Assembly: GCA_000830275.1 (NCBI GenBank)
Contig: CP010424.1
Location: 960,001-992,000 of the forward strand
Length of the DNA: 32,000 nt
Origin: an archaeon GW2011_AR10
GTDB taxonomy: Archaea > Iainarchaeota > Iainarchaeia > Iainarchaeales > GW2011-AR10
Direction: 5' to 3'
Position 1 is the first letter of the stretch. Each line of letters opens with the position of its first letter. Positions 10,430-31,981 of this stretch are shown here, piece by piece. Both the position numbers and the translations under genes were made by a program. Below the pieces are notes generated by a model. It had not been told where the DNA came from and did not search any database. It saw nothing but the letters and a program-made list of their open reading frames with translations.

Positions 10430-10801
10430 TTAAGGGGTATTGAGCCTTTTAAAAGCATCCTCTACTGTCCTTTTGTTGACGTACTGCCTGTGGCTCCGAA
10501 AGCCCCCGCCAAAGCTCCTAGGAATATGAAGGAGTTCATGGATTATTGTCTTGGCTTTTTCTTCCTCGCTTTCTTTGCTGAACCTTTCCGATAAGAGTTC
10601 AATAGTGTAAAAGGAATTGCACTTCATGCCCAGCTGCATTACTTTCCCTAAAGTGTGGATTCTTGCAATTGTCCTCCTGGACTTGGAGCCGTTGCTCATA
10701 ACAACTGAAATCCTGTCAAGGTCAATATGTGTTAACCCGAGTTTAACCGCAATTTCTCTGGCCTTCAGCGTCCAGGTTTCATCGTGCCAGTAGCGCATCA
10801 C
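10430..10801 (-). CDS. predicted small Zn-metallopeptidase (HExxH; archaeal COG4900/SprT-like)
   Basis: HELLH motif followed by IPRSFGGGFRSH. The size (about 123 aa) and context fit the small archaeal putative metallopeptidase family. The family name is from memory. Confidence 0.65.
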   Translation of the reverse strand: MMRYWHDETWTLKAREIAVKLGLTHIDLDRISVVMSNGSKSRRTIARIHTLGKVMQLGMKCNSFYTIELLSERFSKESEEEKAKTIIHELLHIPRSFGGGFRSHRQYVNKRTVEDAFKRLNTP

Positions 10802-17720: not shown

Positions 17721-18578
17721 ATGGATAAAGTAACTGGCGCCAGGCCGGCATTGAACCCTGCTGTGGAAAAGCTGAAGCAAGAACTGCTTATTGCAGGCTA
17801 CTCTGCCAAAACAATTAAAATGTATGCCTTTTATGCCCAGAGCTTTTTGGATTTTGCCAATAAACCAGCTGGAGAAATAACTCGGGAAGACATTGTGGGT
17901 TACCTGGTGAAAATGAAGCAAGGAAGGAACGTTTCTAACGCCACTCTTTCATTGATTCATTCTTCACTAAAATTCCTGTTCAACAACTATTTGCATAAAA
18001 AAATTGTTGACGACATCAAGGTCGCAAAAAAAGCAAAGAAGCTGCCAGTAATACTGTCAAAAGATGAGGTGAAATCGCTGATTAGAGCGGTTAGGCCGGG
18101 AAGAAACCGCTTAATAGTTGAGTTCCTTTACTCAAGCGGTTGCAGGGTAAGCGAAGCCGTAAAACTGAAAACAGAGCACATTAACTTAAAGGAAGGAACA
18201 GGAAGAGTTGCTGGGGGCAAAGGAAACAAGGACCGCATGATTATTCTCTCAAAAGAATGGATTAAGGATATTAACAAATACTTGAAAAAAAAGAGAGTTC
18301 AAAGCCAGTTTGTATTCTCAAAGAAAAATGGGAAACCACTCTCAACCGATACTGTTCAAAGAATAATTAGGGCTGCAACACAAAAAGCAGGAATTGGCAA
18401 GCAGGTTACGCCCCACTCACTGAGGCACGCTTATGCAACACATTTGCTTGAGGCTGGAGAAAACATTCGAAAAATCCAAGAATTGCTGGGCCACAGCAGC
18501 CTTAGCACAACCCAAATCTACACAAAAGTCTCAACAGAGGAACTAAAAAAAGTGGTTTCCCCGCTGGACAAGCTATAA
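17721..18578 (+). CDS. xerA: tyrosine recombinase, XerA/XerCD-like
   Basis: An N-terminal SAM-like core-binding domain plus a catalytic domain: SGCRVSEAVKL (Arg I), HSLRHAYATHLL (HxxR), LLGHSSLSTTQIYTKV (catalytic Tyr). Confidence 0.85.
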   Translation: MDKVTGARPALNPAVEKLKQELLIAGYSAKTIKMYAFYAQSFLDFANKPAGEITREDIVGYLVKMKQGRNVSNATLSLIHSSLKFLFNNYLHKKIVDDIKVAKKAKKLPVILSKDEVKSLIRAVRPGRNRLIVEFLYSSGCRVSEAVKLKTEHINLKEGTGRVAGGKGNKDRMIILSKEWIKDINKYLKKKRVQSQFVFSKKNGKPLSTDTVQRIIRAATQKAGIGKQVTPHSLRHAYATHLLEAGENIRKIQELLGHSSLSTTQIYTKVSTEELKKVVSPLDKL

Positions 18579-25456: not shown

Positions 25457-25465
25457 ATTTAAAAA
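25457..25465 (+). promoter_or_regulatory. TATA-like box (ATTTAAAAA) upstream of tRNA-Lys(UUU)
   Basis: Centred about 32 nt upstream of the mature tRNA 5' end. The same spacing is seen at the two other plus-strand tRNAs. Confidence 0.4.
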
Positions 25466-25492: not shown

Positions 25493-25566
25493 GGGCCCGT
25501 AGCTCAGCCTGGTAGAGCAGCGGCCTTTTAAGCCGCGTGCCGAGGGTTCGAATCCCTCCGGGCTCG
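25493..25566 (+). tRNA. tRNA-Lys (UUU), intronless
   Basis: GGGCCCG-TA-GCTC-AGCCTGGTA-GAGC-A-GCGGC-CTTTTAA-GCCGC-GTGCC-GAGGG-TTCGAAT-CCCTC-CGGGCTC-G. All four stems pair, with one G:U in the acceptor. Confidence 0.9.
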
Positions 25567-25598
25567 CTTTTATATTTAACTTCTTTCCATATTTCTTT

Positions 25599-26191: not shown

Positions 26192-26295
26192 GTTCATCAA
26201 TGTGTGTTCTCCGTAAAAACCTTGCAAACTTATTAATCACCCTTGGATCTTGGCTCTTGATTTCAAATTTCTGGGTTATTGAAGGCGTTGTTGGG
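26192..26295. repeat. 104-bp direct repeat, copy 1 (orphan fragment of the sugar-transferase gene)
   Basis: Matches 31527-31630 at a constant offset of 5335 nt. The first 93 bp are identical and there are 2 mismatches overall. It would encode ...SITQKFEIKSQDPRVINKFARFLRRTHIDE on the minus strand but is not part of any long ORF here. Confidence 0.85.
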
Positions 26296-26407
26296 CGTTT
26301 ACAACCTATATGTGTGCCATCTTCGATGGCACGGTAATTTTGCTCCGTTTACGGGGTGTGGCATCTGTGAACACCAATATATAACCCGTTCCAATGAGTA
26401 ATATGTT

Positions 26408-29874: not shown

Positions 29875-30318
29875 ATGGAGCTTGACAAAACAGATTTAGC
29901 TATCCTCCGTGTTCTTGATGGGAATGCAAGGCTTTCTTTCAGAAAAGTTGCAGCCAAAACAGGTGTTTCAGTTGCAACTGTAATGAACCGTGTCCGCGAA
30001 CTGGAAAATAACAAGGTGATTAAGGCTTATTCTGTGGAACTGGATTACGAGAATATGGGCTATGAGTTACAAGCCATAACTTCAATTATTGTTTCTAAAG
30101 GGAAACTAAATCAGGTTGAAAACAAAATAGCTGTGCACCCGAACGTTACAGCGGTTTACGATATTACGGGCCACTTTGATGTTTTAGTTATTTCGAGGTT
30201 TAAGACAAGGAGAGGCCTTGACGAGTTCCTGAAAAAAATCCAGACATACGAGTTCGTGGAAAAGACTGAAACTGACATAATTTTGAACACCATTAAGCGG
30301 GCTCCGTTAAAGGTTTGA
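29875..30318 (+). CDS. lrp: Lrp/AsnC-family transcriptional regulator
   Basis: HTH SFRKVAAKTGVSVATVMNRVRELE plus a C-terminal RAM domain. Trimmed to the ATG at 29875 (MELDKTDLAILR). Divergent from amt-glnA. Confidence 0.85.
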   Translation: MELDKTDLAILRVLDGNARLSFRKVAAKTGVSVATVMNRVRELENNKVIKAYSVELDYENMGYELQAITSIIVSKGKLNQVENKIAVHPNVTAVYDITGHFDVLVISRFKTRRGLDEFLKKIQTYEFVEKTETDIILNTIKRAPLKV

Positions 30319-31001
30319 CCTGCACCGGAAATGAGGCGCTTCGAAAAGCAGTTAATAGTGAAATAGTTTATTCTGTAATGTATTCTCCTTCTGAACTAGA
30401 ACTGGTTGGCGCTATTATTGGAGATGGGCACATTCATGCCAAACCACCTAAATATTATTTTGGTTTAACTGGAAATAAGGTGACTGACAGGGAATACTTT
30501 GCAAAGCTCTCAGCTTTGATTAGTAGTGTTTGGAATAAAAATGCAAGAGTATTTGAGAGCAGTGGTGGTTTAAGAATAAGAGTTTATTCTAAAAAGATAG
30601 TTCATAAACTCATTAATGATTTTAGCATCCCCTTTAATGCTGGAAAGTGTTATTCAGTCAAAATTCCCGGCGTGTTTCTCAAAGACTATTCCAAGTCAAA
30701 GCACATTATTCGCGGCATAGCGGATACTGATGGCTCCGTGTTTGTTTCTGACAAGCCCGGCGCCATGGATTACCCTTCTTTGGAAATAACCACTGTAAGC
30801 AAAGAGTTGGCGGAGAATATTTGGGAAATTTTAATTAAAAATGGTTTTAGGGTGGCTAGAATAAGGAAATCAAGGTCTCGCCTGAGTAAATCCGATGCTT
30901 ATAAGGTTTGTTTGTATGGAAAAGCAAATTTGAAGAAGTGGATTGAGGAAATAGGTTTTTCAAATCCCCATAAATACCTAAAAGCGGTTTCATTTCTTTA
31001 A
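30315..31001 (+). CDS. free-standing double-motif LAGLIDADG homing-endonuclease-like protein
   Basis: Two LAGLIDADG motifs: LVGAIIGDGHI and IIRGIADTDGSV. The TTG start overlaps the lrp stop (TTGA). An alternative start is ATG at 30378. Confidence 0.75.
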   Translation: MTCTGNEALRKAVNSEIVYSVMYSPSELELVGAIIGDGHIHAKPPKYYFGLTGNKVTDREYFAKLSALISSVWNKNARVFESSGGLRIRVYSKKIVHKLINDFSIPFNAGKCYSVKIPGVFLKDYSKSKHIIRGIADTDGSVFVSDKPGAMDYPSLEITTVSKELAENIWEILIKNGFRVARIRKSRSRLSKSDAYKVCLYGKANLKKWIEEIGFSNPHKYLKAVSFL

Positions 31002-31007
31002 GACATG

Positions 31008-31016
31008 CTTTTAAAC
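31008..31016 (+). promoter_or_regulatory. TATA-like box (CTTTTAAAC) upstream of tRNA-Phe
   Basis: Centred about 33 nt upstream of 31045. Confidence 0.4.
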
Positions 31017-31044: not shown

Positions 31045-31212
31045 GGGAAGGTAGCTCAGCCTGGGAGAGCACATGACCGGCACAAGCTTGCCTGTTAGTG
31101 ACTTGTTTTGCCAGTGTGTAGCTGAAGATGGGGCAACATTGTTTTGTTGTTTTAATCTTCGTTGCTCTCAGCGGTGACCATGGTGTCGCGGGTTCAAATC
31201 CCGCTCTTCCCA
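31045..31212 (+). tRNA. tRNA-Phe (GAA) with two introns (30/31 and 37/38)
   Basis: Exon 1 31045-31075 (positions 1-30), intron 31076-31120, exon 2 31121-31127 (GCTGAAG, positions 31-37), intron 31128-31176, exon 3 31177-31212. The spliced product is 74 nt: GGGAAGG-TA-GCTC-AGCCTGGGA-GAGC-A-CATGG-CTGAAGA-CCATG-GTGTC-GCGGG-TTCAAAT-CCCGC-TCTTCCC-A. BHB details are given in the findings. Confidence 0.75.
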
Positions 31213-31231: not shown

Positions 31232-31797
31232 TTACTTGGAGGGAACTTTTCCGCGGAGCTTGTTTGAAAAGAATGCTTTGCTGTATTTCCAGTAAGCTTT
31301 GGCTTTATTTTTTTTCCAGAGTTCGTAGAATTTCCTGTACTCGTCGTATACTTCCTGAGTTGTTGGGGGAAATTTTTTTAGTGTGTAATGAATTCCAATA
31401 AGACCGGGCCCTAACTTATCATATATTCCTTTAATGTCTTTTGGCAGGGCATCATATTCTTCTCTTGCCAAAGGCCTAATTCCCACTAAAGCAAGTCGCC
31501 TTTCAAAAAAGAAATAATTTGGGGGAGTTCATCAATGTGTGTTCTCCGTAAAAACCTTGCAAACTTATTAATCACCCTTGGATCTTGGCTCTTGATTTCA
31601 AATTTCTGGGTTATTGAAGTAGTTGTTGGGTATAAGTTCCCTCTTTCTTCCGCAGCTCCTCTTTTCATTGTCCTAATTTTGGTAATTGTAATAGGTAAAC
31701 CGCCTTTTCCAACTCTTTCACCGCGATGAAAAAGAAATGTGTCCTTGCGCTTCGGCATTAAGAAAGAACAGGGTTTTGAAGAATATAATGATTGCAC
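31232..31797 (-). pseudogene. sugar transferase (polyprenyl-phosphate glycosyl-1-phosphate transferase family), N-terminally truncated and frameshifted
   Basis: FHRGERVGKGGLPITITKIRTM...DPRVINKFARFLRRTHIDELPQIISFLKGDLL-stop, then in another frame VGIRPLAREEY... The frame break falls inside the conserved GD(M)SLVGPRP motif at about 31486. The usual N-terminal TM segment is absent. Confidence 0.65.
31527..31630. repeat. 104-bp direct repeat, copy 2 (inside the sugar-transferase remnant)
   Basis: See 26192-26295. Confidence 0.85.
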
Positions 31798-31813: not shown

Positions 31814-31823
31814 TTTTTAAATA
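31814..31823 (+). promoter_or_regulatory. TATA-like box (TTTTTAAATA) upstream of tRNA-Lys(CUU)
   Basis: Centred about 33 nt upstream of 31851. Confidence 0.4.
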
Positions 31824-31850: not shown

Positions 31851-31981
31851 GGGCCCATAGCTCAGTCTGGTAGAGCACTTGATTTTTCGAAGCTTTTTAG
31901 GCTTGGAAGAGGTGCGGCTCTTAAACGCTTTCCAGAAGTAGGGTGACCAAGGTGTCGAGGGTTCGAATCCCTCTGGGCTCG
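31851..31981 (+). tRNA. tRNA-Lys (CUU) with two introns (30/31 and 37/38)
   Basis: Exon 1 31851-31881, intron 31882-31916, exon 2 31917-31923 (GCTCTTA), intron 31924-31945, exon 3 31946-31981. The spliced product is 74 nt with anticodon arm CTTGG-CTCTTAA-CCAAG. The acceptor, D and T arms are nearly identical to tRNA-Lys(UUU) at 25493. Confidence 0.75.

Follow-up and report, generated by a model that had tools for sequence, protein, structure and literature searches.

A tRNA-Phe gene with a 7-nt anticodon exon

The question raised by this locus was how a mature tRNA could be obtained from a 168-nt stretch (positions 31045-31212) that has the ends of a tRNA gene and a long insert within its anticodon arm. 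The window, that is the whole stretch of DNA that was analysed, comprised 32,000 nt of contig CP010424.1 of the archaeon GW2011_AR10, and all of the features given below lie on its forward strand. A sequence-only reading of the window had interpreted the locus as a tRNA-Phe gene interrupted by two introns, with a spliced anticodon arm of CATGG-CTGAAGA-CCATG, and this parse was borne out by the span of the Rfam match and by the ARAGORN call on the spliced 74-mer. We consider it very probable that the stretch from 31045 to 31212 represents a functional tRNA-Phe(GAA) gene of an archaeon, with two protein-spliced introns of the BHB type, located at positions 30/31 and 37/38.

The Rfam tRNA model RF00005 matched the gene end to end with 40.6 bits (gathering score 29), with the full model (1-71) covered and 103 nt within the anticodon arm treated as an insert. 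Exon 1 (31045-31075), assigned from this match and the parse, corresponds to positions 1-30 and carries the 5' strand of the acceptor stem, the D arm, A26 and C27-G30. Since the introns are located at 30/31 and 37/38, positions 31-37 form an exon of only 7 nt (31121-31127, GCTGAAG), which was assigned from the parse and the spliced product and consists of G31, C32, U33, the anticodon G34 A35 A36, and G37. Exon 3 (31177-31212; Rfam match, ARAGORN and sequence) corresponds to positions 38-73 and contains A38, C39-G43, the variable loop GTGTC, the T arm, the 3' strand of the acceptor stem and the discriminator A73; no CCA was found encoded at the 3' end when the sequence was read.

The removal of 31076-31120 and 31128-31176 resulted in a 74-nt molecule that was identified by ARAGORN as tRNA-Phe(GAA) with a perfect cloverleaf and all four stems intact. 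The conserved nucleotides U8, G18-G19-G20, U33, G37 and A73 were found in this product. The identity set of tRNA-Phe consists of the anticodon G34 A35 A36, the discriminator A73 and G20, accompanied by U33 and a purine at position 37, and all of these were read directly in the spliced sequence. An A/T-rich, TATA-like box, TTTTAAAC, is located at 31009-31016, about 30 nt upstream of the 5' end of the gene, and represents its putative archaeal promoter.

Two other tRNA genes of the window were informative. As also noticed in the sequence-only reading, a second gene of the same 30/31 and 37/38 design is present, and it was identified as tRNA-Lys(CUU) (31851-31981; Rfam, 50.3 bits). Its exons were parsed as 31851-31881, 31917-31923 (GCTCTTA) and 31946-31981, and its introns as 31882-31916 (35 nt, 30/31) and 31924-31945 (22 nt, 37/38); both BHBs form 4/4 central pairs, and the spliced product was called tRNA-Lys(CUU) by ARAGORN with all four stems intact. 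The third gene, an intronless tRNA-Lys(UUU) (25493-25566; ARAGORN, and Rfam with 69.2 bits), shows that this genome also has uninterrupted tRNA genes and that it already possesses a Lys(UUU) isoacceptor. Boxes similar to the putative tRNA-Phe promoter were found at equal distance upstream of tRNA-Lys(CUU) (31814-31823) and of the intronless tRNA-Lys(UUU) (25458-25465).

Two introns and their BHB motifs

The junctions of tRNA-Phe were set by the cloverleaf and not by the pairing of the introns, so the BHB pairing served as an independent test of the parse. Intron 1 (31076-31120, 45 nt) lies between positions 30 and 31 and forms a strict BHB, as had been claimed from the letters. The bulges of this motif (BHB-1) are T29 G30|A and T A|G31, and its central helix is formed by C25-A28 (31070-31073) with TGTG (31115-31118), all four pairs being Watson-Crick. 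The inner helix GGCA/TGCC joins 31077-31082 with 31109-31114 (5 of the first 6 pairs formed), and the outer helix, A23-G24 with C32-U33, comprises just 2 bp.

Intron 2 (31128-31176, 49 nt), at the canonical 37/38 position, forms a relaxed motif (BHB-2) with the bulges A36 G37|A and T G|A38, and both pairings proposed earlier for its central helix were found: CTGA (31122-31125) with GCGG (31171-31174) forms 3/4 pairs, and CTGA with TCAG (31168-31171) forms 4/4 pairs, the 3' bulge then being enlarged to 6 nt. The inner helix starts with 31129 paired to 31170. In the intron 2 of relatives the strict CTGA/TCAG helix occurs without the 3-nt CGG that is present here, and relative to them the BHB-2 of the window gene is degraded by a 3-nt insertion. 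At A38 the junction could be placed one base further on (38/39 instead of 37/38) without any change of the product, and the rule of 3-nt bulges favours 37/38.

Other kinds of inserts were considered and rejected. No C or D box motifs of a guide RNA were found on reading the introns. Group I introns of bacterial tRNA genes are about 200 nt or longer and have a group I ribozyme fold; the introns described here have 45 and 49 nt, and no Rfam intron family was matched in the window. A split, trans-spliced tRNA of the Nanoarchaeum type was dismissed, as all three exons are located inside 168 contiguous bases. The structure is also not an assembly artefact, since the sequence of the locus is identical across four independent assemblies.

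Folding and proposed order of splicing

The following sequence of maturation was proposed. One precursor would be transcribed from the TATA-like promoter. The 3' end of intron 1 (UGUG) would pair with C25-A28, and C32-U33 with A23-G24, forming BHB-1 and temporarily displacing the 3' strand of the D stem. EndA, the archaeal splicing endonuclease, would cut each 3-nt bulge between its second and third nucleotides, and an RNA ligase would join G30 to G31. The intron-1-free body would then fold as a cloverleaf, the anticodon stem of which (27-31 with 39-43) would act as the outer helix of the canonical 37/38 BHB-2, and BHB-2 would be cut and ligated as BHB-1 was. Transcription of the precursor and its cleavage by EndA are predicted here from the DNA, and we infer that the EndA of the host accepts a relaxed motif as well as a position other than the canonical one. 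No EndA or RtcB/ligase domain was detected by Pfam among the called genes of the window or the contig.

The proposed order was based on the overlap between the two motifs. The outer helix of BHB-1 (A23-G24 with C32-U33) overlaps the central helix of BHB-2 (C32-A35). Both motifs have the 3-4-3 geometry. The outer run of BHB-2 has 1 bp before the removal of intron 1 and 5 bp after it, and BHB-1 is unaltered by the removal of intron 2. Sequential removal has been described for closely spaced tRNA introns, such as those found here (PMC8450103).

Folding energies were also calculated for both precursors. The BHBs were not reproduced by unconstrained minimum-energy folding of either the Phe or the Lys precursor, a competing helix (GAAGAU with AUCUUC) prevailing in the former, and constrained folds were therefore used. 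The BHB-constrained folds of the Phe precursor had energies of -57.0 and -52.0 kcal/mol, about 10 kcal/mol above the unconstrained minimum of -66.6 kcal/mol, and those of the Lys precursor were at most 2-3 kcal/mol from the minimum free energy. When both central helices were forced into one fold, -43.6 kcal/mol was obtained for Phe and -37.1 kcal/mol for Lys, so that the simultaneous fold costs 8-13 and 3-6 kcal/mol, respectively, compared with the folds in which one motif was enforced. Thermodynamics by itself neither proves nor refutes the BHB motifs.

The sequence-only reading had held that the two BHBs are incompatible and that ordered splicing is implied. The overlap and the extension of the outer run of BHB-2 were confirmed; strict incompatibility was not, as the central helices can coexist at an energy cost, and the order of intron 1 before intron 2 is reasonable, not proven. 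It is possible, although rather unlikely, that the gene and the junctions are right and no obligatory order exists, a broad-specificity EndA cutting the introns independently or intron 2 first via relaxed HBh'/hBH half-motifs. Such cleavage would be compatible with the joint enforcement of both central helices, and the central and inner helices of intron 2, together with one of its outer pairs, are retained in the unspliced precursor; moreover, acceptance of relaxed motifs has been reported or suggested for (alpha-beta)2 and epsilon2 EndAs and for the L3-loop alpha4 EndAs of DPANN (PMC3239211, PMC5829648). However, A23-G24 and the 3' end of intron 2 compete for C32-U33, which cannot pair with both at once, the full hBHBh' of intron 2 exists only once intron 1 is gone, and the energy cost of the simultaneous fold applies in both precursors. 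Removal of intron 1 before intron 2 was kept as the preferred order.

Conservation and covariation of the layout

The comparison with orthologous genes, suggested earlier as a check, supported the parse. The 30/31 and 37/38 layout of tRNA-Phe was found in 12 other species-level genomes, which belong to Ca. Iainarchaeum, Micrarchaeota, Woesearchaeota and further archaea. The micro-exon in these genomes is GCTGAAG, or ACTGAAG in two of them (L015 and L020), and homologous introns are shared by the seven closest tRNA-Phe genes (the window, L016, L021, L023, L038, L045 and L056). The genomes in which homologous introns occur suggest that the host is probably a DPANN archaeon close to Ca. Iainarchaeum. 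The tRNA-Lys(CUU) layout is repeated in five genomes (L021, L038, L179, L181 and L186); in a further variant of this gene (L004), a G-U pair in the central helix of intron 2 is replaced by A-U. The same layout was also observed in tRNA-Lys(UUU), Tyr(GUA) and Trp(CCA) on metagenome contigs. A 7-nt exon of positions 31-37 is thus less unusual than the sequence-only reading had held: among tRNA-Phe genes it is shared by at least 12 further genomes, it occurs in these other isoacceptors too, and the class of gene has been published.

The changes among the relatives preserve the pairing of both motifs. For BHB-1, compared in 15 related sequences, 80.5% of the cells were paired, versus about 40% when the partner was slid by 1-3 columns. 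Its central helix was paired in 100% of the cells, with changes on both sides at 2/4 pairs, and such changes were found at 6/6 pairs of the inner helix and at 8/14 pairs overall. Both outer pairs are invariant, so the outer helix is neither supported nor opposed by the comparison. For BHB-2 (17 sequences), 83.9% of the cells were paired, versus about 40-51% for the slid controls, and both sides had changed at 13/15 pairs. The observed covariation score was reached by none of 500 shuffles for either motif. These pairing-preserving changes indicate that BHB pairing is probably kept by selection in the orthologues.

Alternative readings of the gene

It is very improbable that the gene is a decayed or non-functional relic to which the two-intron parse fits by chance. 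Such an origin might be suspected from the modest Rfam score (40.6 bits), from the imperfect BHB of intron 2 and from ARAGORN, which made no call on the unspliced tRNA-Phe in the window scan, nor in its no-intron mode. In addition, a few shuffles of the insert (7 of 2000) reached an equal BHB score with some two-intron parse. The rarity of such fits, which for the Lys gene were obtained in 1 of 2000 shuffles, also speaks for the parse. Against a relic, the same architecture is shared by 12 further genomes and by another isoacceptor, the changes seen in both BHBs preserve the pairing, and the spliced product is a cloverleaf without flaws that contains the nucleotides of Phe identity. The gene is also identical in four assemblies, its promoter-like box is as far upstream as that of the intronless tRNA gene, and a search of 241 million metagenome records gave no exact match to the spliced sequence, which argues weakly against an intronless paralogue.

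The claim that no single-intron parse is valid was upheld by a strict enumeration based on the anticodon stem, U33 and R37: none of the 13 single-intron parses of tRNA-Phe had U33, and all formed at most 4/5 stem pairs. The next-best two-intron parses scored at most 8, versus 12 for the chosen one. The enumeration was used because ARAGORN was not discriminating: over 671 single-deletion products per gene it accepted hundreds of odd ones, as the acceptor and T arms were intact in them. ARAGORN had been proposed as a check in the sequence-only reading, and it served as one for the spliced form, identified as tRNA-Phe(GAA), and not for the unspliced gene, which it missed or, with its single-intron option, called tRNA-Ala(TGC); the unspliced Lys gene was likewise miscalled as tRNA-Glu(TTC). 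It is scarcely credible that the real parse is another one, whether with one long intron, shifted junctions or a changed anticodon; the neighbouring gene would then be a tRNA-Lys(UUU) that has one intron and a mismatch of A31 with C39. These two ARAGORN calls favour such a reading, as do Lys parses with one intron after position 35 or 36 (loop UUUUUGA, 4/5 stem pairs). Against it, U33 is absent from every single-intron parse of Phe and the rival two-intron parses score lower, and the Lys alternative has a mismatched stem, would duplicate the intronless tRNA-Lys(UUU) at 25493 and is not conserved, as intron 1 starts with ATTCTTT rather than ATTTTT in two relatives (L021 and L038), where the parse gives U37.

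A LAGLIDADG gene beside the tRNA gene

A monomeric, free-standing gene resembling those of LAGLIDADG homing endonucleases (30378-31001) ends 43 nt upstream of the start of tRNA-Phe. It encodes 207 aa from the ATG at 30378, its longest ORF starting at 30315, and the protein matched Pfam LAGLIDADG_3 (PF14528) with E = 2.3e-9. LAGLIDADG homing endonucleases are characterised by two motifs with acidic residues and a pseudo-dimeric alpha-beta-beta-alpha-beta-beta-alpha fold. Both Asp-containing motifs of the protein (GAIIGDGH and GIADTDGS) were at least 95% conserved among 55 homologues, and the Asp residues of GDG and TDG were invariant across 30 aligned homologues. The AlphaFold model had a pLDDT of 96, and the PDB structures closest to it in fold were I-Tsp061I, I-DmoI and the endonuclease domains of inteins (TM about 0.7); the predicted structure fits the two-motif pseudo-dimeric LAGLIDADG fold. 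A PDB sequence search with the protein returned a spurious weak match only.

Neighbouring LAGLIDADG genes were scored by a family HMM and Pfam scans, a two-motif regular expression being too strict (it missed that of L015). They were found next to tRNA-Phe at 15 of 25 related genome loci and in 5/5 independently sampled contexts, and tRNA-Lys(CUU) is flanked by a separate LAGLIDADG subfamily. The genes occur in either orientation beside the tRNA gene and are free-standing, outside any intron or intein. Fragmentary copies were found in five genomes (L020, L025, L038, L104 and L181), and in L015 and L020 unrelated LAGLIDADG ORFs occupy one spot between flanks that are 80-90% identical. Such patchy presence, fragments, swaps and variable orientation would fit a mobile element, and the linkage suggests that homing endonucleases may target these tRNA genes.

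It was tentatively proposed that the LAGLIDADG genes flanking tRNA-Phe and tRNA-Lys(CUU) in many DPANN genomes encode free-standing homing endonucleases that would recognise the uninterrupted tRNA gene; the introns would break the recognition site, protect the carrier allele and be co-copied during double-strand-break repair. This proposal, drawn from gene neighbourhoods, is considered doubtful. The recognition site in a homing system of this kind would most plausibly be the anticodon-arm DNA of the uninterrupted tRNA gene. No account of LAGLIDADG genes adjoining archaeal tRNA genes was found in the literature.

Comparison with known systems

Published precedents exist for archaeal tRNAs with several introns, for an intron at 30/31, for a 6-nt micro-exon (in the tRNA-Pro of ARMAN-2) and for the stepwise removal of introns that lie close together (PMC4090602, PMC3239211, PMC8450103), and 30/31 is among the listed non-canonical intron positions (PMC4090602). 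In Pyrobaculum islandicum, tRNA-Pro(UGG) has introns at 25/26, 37/38 and 56/57, as relayed from Sugahara 2007/2008 in PMC4090602 and PMC4033280. As in the multi-intron tRNAs of Thermoproteales/TACK, several short introns with BHB or relaxed BHB motifs occupy 37/38 and a non-canonical position. However, those hosts are hyperthermophilic Crenarchaeota, whereas the lineage of the window is DPANN-like with about 40% G+C, and the 30/31 and 37/38 pair isolates exactly positions 31-37 and is conserved across phylum-level groups and isoacceptors. No description of this pair was found in the searchable literature, in which slash-separated positions cannot be searched as text, and nothing was found on tRNA introns of Iainarchaeum.

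ARMAN-2 is likewise a DPANN archaeon in which two adjacent BHB introns leave a micro-exon (6 nt) within a loop, and it has a broad-specificity (epsilon2) EndA. Its micro-exon is located in the T loop, whereas that of the window carries the anticodon and one of the introns lies in the anticodon stem. In Nanoarchaeum equitans and Staphylothermus, a split, trans-spliced tRNA-Lys(CUU) is joined at 30/31 (PMC3218864, PMC4090602). The isoacceptor, the 30/31 break and the BHB at the junction are the same as for intron 1 of the window tRNA-Lys(CUU); however, the halves there are separate genes kilobases apart, whereas the window gene is contiguous, with a cis intron at 30/31 and a second intron at 37/38.

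For the speculative link between the LAGLIDADG genes and the introns, and for this link only, collaborative homing in cyanophage S-PM2 offers a parallel, in which the free-standing F-CphI gene lies beside the intron-containing psbA (Zeng, Bonocora and Shub 2009, as cited in PMC6083498); trans-homing has also been described for T4 mobE (PMC2790892). As in S-PM2, a free-standing endonuclease gene adjoins a conserved gene whose introns carry no endonuclease ORF. The phage systems involve group I self-splicing introns, a non-LAGLIDADG nuclease and demonstrated cleavage of the intronless allele, in contrast to the BHB introns of cellular tRNA genes in the window.

Significance

The value of the tRNA-Phe gene itself is mostly practical. 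Incomplete tRNA sets have been noted for DPANN archaea, and manual curation has been called for (Kaneta et al., PMC5829648). Since the gene is invisible to ARAGORN and the tRNA gene copy of one relative (L179) falls below the Rfam gathering score, such genomes can seem to be without tRNA-Phe and tRNA-Lys(CUU). The layout is conserved over genomes labelled as Iainarchaeum, Micrarchaeota and Woesearchaeota. In addition, 30/31 is the split point of Nanoarchaeum tRNA-Lys(CUU), and the window adds a cis-intron counterpart to the discussion of which arose earlier, introns or split genes.

What was not expected, and is of greater interest, is that LAGLIDADG genes are linked to these tRNA genes repeatedly and in an isoacceptor-specific manner. 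Should the enzymes cut uninterrupted tRNA genes, the gain and movement of archaeal tRNA introns would become directly testable. This would represent an archaeal, BHB-intron version of collaborative homing and a DNA-level mechanism for the gain and spread of protein-spliced tRNA introns, and it would explain the recurrence of two positions, 30/31 and 37/38, across isoacceptors and phyla.

Structure of the tRNA-Phe gene

The Rfam tRNA covariance model aligned over the full length of 31045-31212 with 40.6 bits (gathering score 29), and a 103-nt insert was placed in the anticodon arm. When ARAGORN was run on the window, an intronless tRNA-Lys(UUU) at 25493-25567 was the sole call, and neither 31045-31212 nor 31851-31981 was reported. 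Counting from G1 at 31045, the 5' part of the gene was regular up to G30 (31075), and the 3' part began at A38 (31177) and ended with the discriminator A73 (31212). The CCATG strand (C39-G43) requires a CATGG partner, yet G30 was directly followed by an A. The segment needed, G31 C32 U33 G34 A35 A36 G37, was found at 31121-31127. The three joined pieces gave a 74-nt RNA that was drawn by ARAGORN as a flawless tRNA-Phe(GAA), as expected from the two-intron structure proposed in the sequence-only reading. The coordinates and pairings of that reading all agreed with the sequence, and its claim that no single-intron parse was valid also held: U33 was absent from all 13 possible parses, and at most four of the five stem pairs were formed. 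The observation was confirmed and its interpretation was supported. The gene belongs to the known class of multi-intron archaeal tRNA genes spliced at bulge-helix-bulge (BHB) motifs. It is well established that archaeal tRNAs can carry as many as three introns, and 30/31 is a listed non-canonical intron position (PMC4090602, PMC4033280).

Over its final 10 kb, the window was identical to contigs of an ENA assembly and of the JGI metagenome 3300025308, and 99.9% identical to the NCBI MAG GCA_013332025.1. The tRNA-Phe gene was identical in all four assemblies that covered it.

The splice sites were evaluated against the standard BHB, in which a 4-bp helix separates two 3-nt bulges and the cut follows the second bulge nucleotide (slash). 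Intron 1 (31076-31120, position 30/31) had the bulges UG/A and UA/G, a central helix of four Watson-Crick pairs between C25-A28 and UGUG, five of the first six inner-helix pairs and a 2-bp outer helix (G24-C32 and A23-U33). Intron 2 (31128-31176, position 37/38) had the bulges AG/A and UG/A, three of four central pairs, a 5-bp inner helix and, after removal of intron 1, a 5-bp outer helix. Its motif was relaxed here because of an additional CGG ahead of the 3' bulge, while the relatives carried a strict CUGA/UCAG helix. As a chance control, the insert was shuffled 2000 times and valid two-intron parses with an equal BHB score were counted; 7 shuffles matched for Phe and 1 for Lys.

A second gene, tRNA-Lys(CUU)

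The window was also said to hold a second gene of the same design, and it was located at 31851-31981. This stretch matched the Rfam tRNA model end to end with a 60-nt insert in the anticodon arm, and the spliced product of the exons 31851-31881, 31917-31923 and 31946-31981 was tRNA-Lys(CUU). The introns lay at 30/31 and 37/38, both with complete 4/4 central helices. A population variant (contig L004; L-numbers denote related loci and contigs fetched for comparison) replaced a G-U pair by A-U in the intron-2 helix. Split tRNA-Lys(CUU) of Nanoarchaeum and Staphylothermus is joined exactly at 30/31 (PMC3218864).

A single-intron parse with the anticodon UUU was rejected. It contained an A31-C39 mismatch, was not conserved among relatives and would add a second tRNA-Lys(UUU) to the intronless one already present. 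This spurious parse arose because the start of intron 1 resembles an anticodon loop, AUUUUUC/AUUCUUU (window 31882-31888; L021, L038), which may be a trace of the origin of the intron.

Distribution and covariation

A scan for two-insert tRNA-Phe patterns in one genome per prokaryotic species returned 52 matches. The exact 30/31 plus 37/38 layout was found in 12 of them, including Ca. Iainarchaeum andersonii, other Iainarchaeum MAGs, a Micrarchaeota MAG and a Woesearchaeota MAG. The introns were clearly homologous in seven genes (the window, L016, L021, L023, L038, L045 and L056), which probably places the host among DPANN archaea close to Iainarchaeum. Other DPANN matches differed in layout. 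Three introns were apparent in the tRNA-Phe of L018 (3024-3180), L025 (6794-6945), L030 (727-884) and L045 (7659-7865); the first three combined 30/31 and 37/38 with an intron near 42-44, leaving a second micro-exon of 5-6 nt, and L045 had an additional intron of ~30 nt after position 9. The L048 gene (6896-7029) lacked a 37/38 intron and had one at 30/31 and another after position 43. By hand check, the first intron of L047 (1467-1605) was at 27/28, giving a 10-nt anticodon exon, and its 3' end GCUC paired with G22-C25. L057, L050, L008, L051, L029, L032 and L042 resembled L047 in sequence around the first junction and may share this intron position.

A second scan, of metagenomes with eight anticodons permitted, recovered the 30/31 plus 37/38 design on contigs for Tyr(GUA) (at least 10), Lys(CUU) (at least 4), Lys(UUU) (1) and Trp(CCA) (1). 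The same-design tRNA-Lys(CUU) also adjoined tRNA-Phe in L021, L038, L179, L181 and L186. The design occurs across several isoacceptors, and therefore the 7-nt micro-exon is a recurring architecture, common in these lineages, and not a rarity of the window; its earlier description as unusual was not upheld. ARMAN-2 tRNA-Pro has a 6-nt micro-exon between introns at 53/54 and 59/60 (PMC3239211). No description of the 30/31 plus 37/38 pair in DPANN was found in the literature searched. Kaneta et al. could not complete DPANN tRNA sets and suspected undetected disrupted genes (PMC5829648).

Separately, ~40% of the tRNA-Phe pattern matches were apparent multi-intron tRNA-Lys(CUU) genes of soil Bathyarchaeota (L007, L009, L010, L013, L017, L019 and ~15 further loci), with CTGAAG twice within the inserts.

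The orthologous genes recommended for comparison, represented by the 12 same-layout genomes, showed pairing-preserving changes in both BHBs. The alignments were anchored on junctions set by the cloverleaf and not by intron pairing, therefore the BHB pairing was an independent test. In BHB-1, the motif of intron 1 (15 sequences), the central helix was paired in 100% of cells, position 28 and its intron partner forming U-G, A-U, C-G and U-A, and both sides changed in all six inner-helix pairs. Overall, 80.5% of cells were paired against 34-47% with the partner slid. In BHB-2, the motif of intron 2 (17 sequences), 83.9% were paired against 37-51%, and both sides changed in 13 of 15 pairs. Neither covariation score was reached by any of 500 shuffles. 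An exact search of 241 million metagenome records with the spliced Phe sequence gave no match, therefore no intronless tRNA-Phe twin was in view.

Order of splicing

BHB-1 would borrow C25, the last D-stem base, and A26-A28, with C32-U33 paired to A23-G24. In BHB-2, the central helix would draw on C32-A35, and the outer helix would pair 27-31 with 39-43. Relative to the full precursor, removal of intron 1 extended the outer helix of BHB-2 from 1 to 5 bp; BHB-1 was unchanged with or without intron 2. Constrained folding gave unconstrained minima for the full Phe and Lys precursors of -66.6 and -46.5 kcal/mol, respectively. The corresponding energies were -57.0 and -43.5 with BHB-1 enforced, -52.0 and -40.3 with BHB-2 enforced, and -43.6 and -37.1 with both central helices enforced. 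After removal of intron 1, the minima were -49.5 and -35.1, and -39.3 and -33.0 with BHB-2 enforced; the last Lys structure was a complete cloverleaf plus BHB-2.

The most economical order, we infer, is loss of intron 1 before intron 2. A broad-specificity splicing endonuclease (EndA) could instead cleave half-motifs without a fixed sequence of events. Neither the window nor the sequenced flanks contained an EndA or ligase gene. Sequential removal has a published parallel, as some introns lie so close together that a second BHB needs prior removal of one (tRNAscan-SE 2.0, PMC8450103).

It was also observed that intron 2 of tRNA-Phe carries AUCUUC, a perfect complement of G34-A35-A36-G37 and the first two intron bases (31124-31129 with 31154-31159). 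The motif AATCTTCGTTGC was conserved in L016, L021, L038 and L056, and L023 and L045 had close variants of it. Its helix was chosen in the minimum-energy fold and competes with BHB-2.

Possible mobile features of the window

A 161-nt stretch (26192-26352), containing a fragment of Bac_transf coding sequence (SITQKFEIKSQDPRVINKFARFLRRTHIDE), recurred around tRNA-Lys(CUU) at 31527-31630 and just beyond the window end (L002 18639-18695). The copy was split by a 367-nt segment bearing tRNA-Lys(CUU) and its putative promoter box, which suggests a rearrangement or insertion at this locus. The tRNA-Lys(CUU) 3' end and trailer (CTCGCTAAAACGGAAAG) were repeated ~100 nt downstream (L002 18620-18760, that is window 31979 to ~32119, mostly past the window), resembling the attachment-site duplication of an integrating element. 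The Bac_transf sugar-transferase gene was seemingly split into abutting ORFs at 31232-31486 (-) and 31486-31797 (-); one piece ended in ...LPQIISFLKGDLL, the next started with MGIRPL..., and the N-terminal part seemed absent. The window also held a phage-type metallopeptidase ORF (10430-10801, -) and a tyrosine recombinase (Phage_integrase; 17721-18578, +), and neighbouring contigs an IS200-type Y1 transposase (L002 1005-1442, L003 39-344). An integrated or mobile element may make up part of the window.

LAGLIDADG genes linked to tRNA genes

An ORF of 207 aa at 30378-31001 (+) stopped 43 nt upstream of tRNA-Phe; its product was a monomeric, homing-endonuclease-like LAGLIDADG protein with two motifs (Pfam E = 2.3e-9). 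Both catalytic-motif aspartates were at least 95% conserved among 55 homologues. The protein model (pLDDT 96) superposed on the archaeal intron-encoded I-Tsp061I and I-DmoI and on intein endonuclease domains with a TM of ~0.7.

Homologues directly adjoined tRNA-Phe in L008, L020, L023 (1538-2245), L025, L027 (4260-4913), L029, L035 (7489-7998), L038, L047 (487-1473), L048 (6271-6945), L050 and L057 (2288-2911), and more distant LAGLIDADG_3 ORFs occupied the same position in L015, L030 and L045; together they were present at 15 of 25 DPANN tRNA-Phe loci. LAGLIDADG genes also lay beside tRNA-Phe in L179 (1483-2130), L186 (1498-2184) and L185 (1486-2130). All five homologues chosen by protein similarity alone adjoined tRNA-Phe, four of these genes containing introns. 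The fifth, in L185, was intronless, which speaks against a strict need for introns.

Whether the arrangement was tandem or convergent, the LAGLIDADG gene always had its 3' end towards the tRNA gene, and several copies were fragmentary. L015 (1300-1977) and L020 (reverse strand, 1147-1819) carried unrelated LAGLIDADG ORFs at the same spot upstream of tRNA-Phe within flanks 80-90% identical, and the L020 copy was broken into two ORFs. An endonuclease gene cassette appears to have turned over at this position. An AsnC-family regulator gene abutted tRNA-Phe in L049; in the window, the LAGLIDADG gene lay between the two.

A distinct LAGLIDADG subfamily, whose members shared 37-44% identity with one another and ~25% with the Phe-linked subfamily, adjoined two-intron tRNA-Lys(CUU) immediately upstream in L179 (554-1222), L186 (587-1267) and L104 (4422-4838). 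The gene order in L179 and L186 was LAGLIDADG, tRNA-Lys(CUU), LAGLIDADG, tRNA-Phe. In L186, SerRS and tRNA-Lys(UUU) preceded this array, echoing the gene content of the window.

The adjacency, specificity and signs of mobility are hallmarks of free-standing homing-endonuclease genes, with the tRNA gene or its flank as the putative homing site. The tRNA introns might interrupt the endonuclease target, as an intron does in the 'collaborative homing' of cyanophage psbA (PMC6083498). The tRNA-Phe finding by itself is of modest interest; it is the tRNA-linked LAGLIDADG genes that merit experiment.
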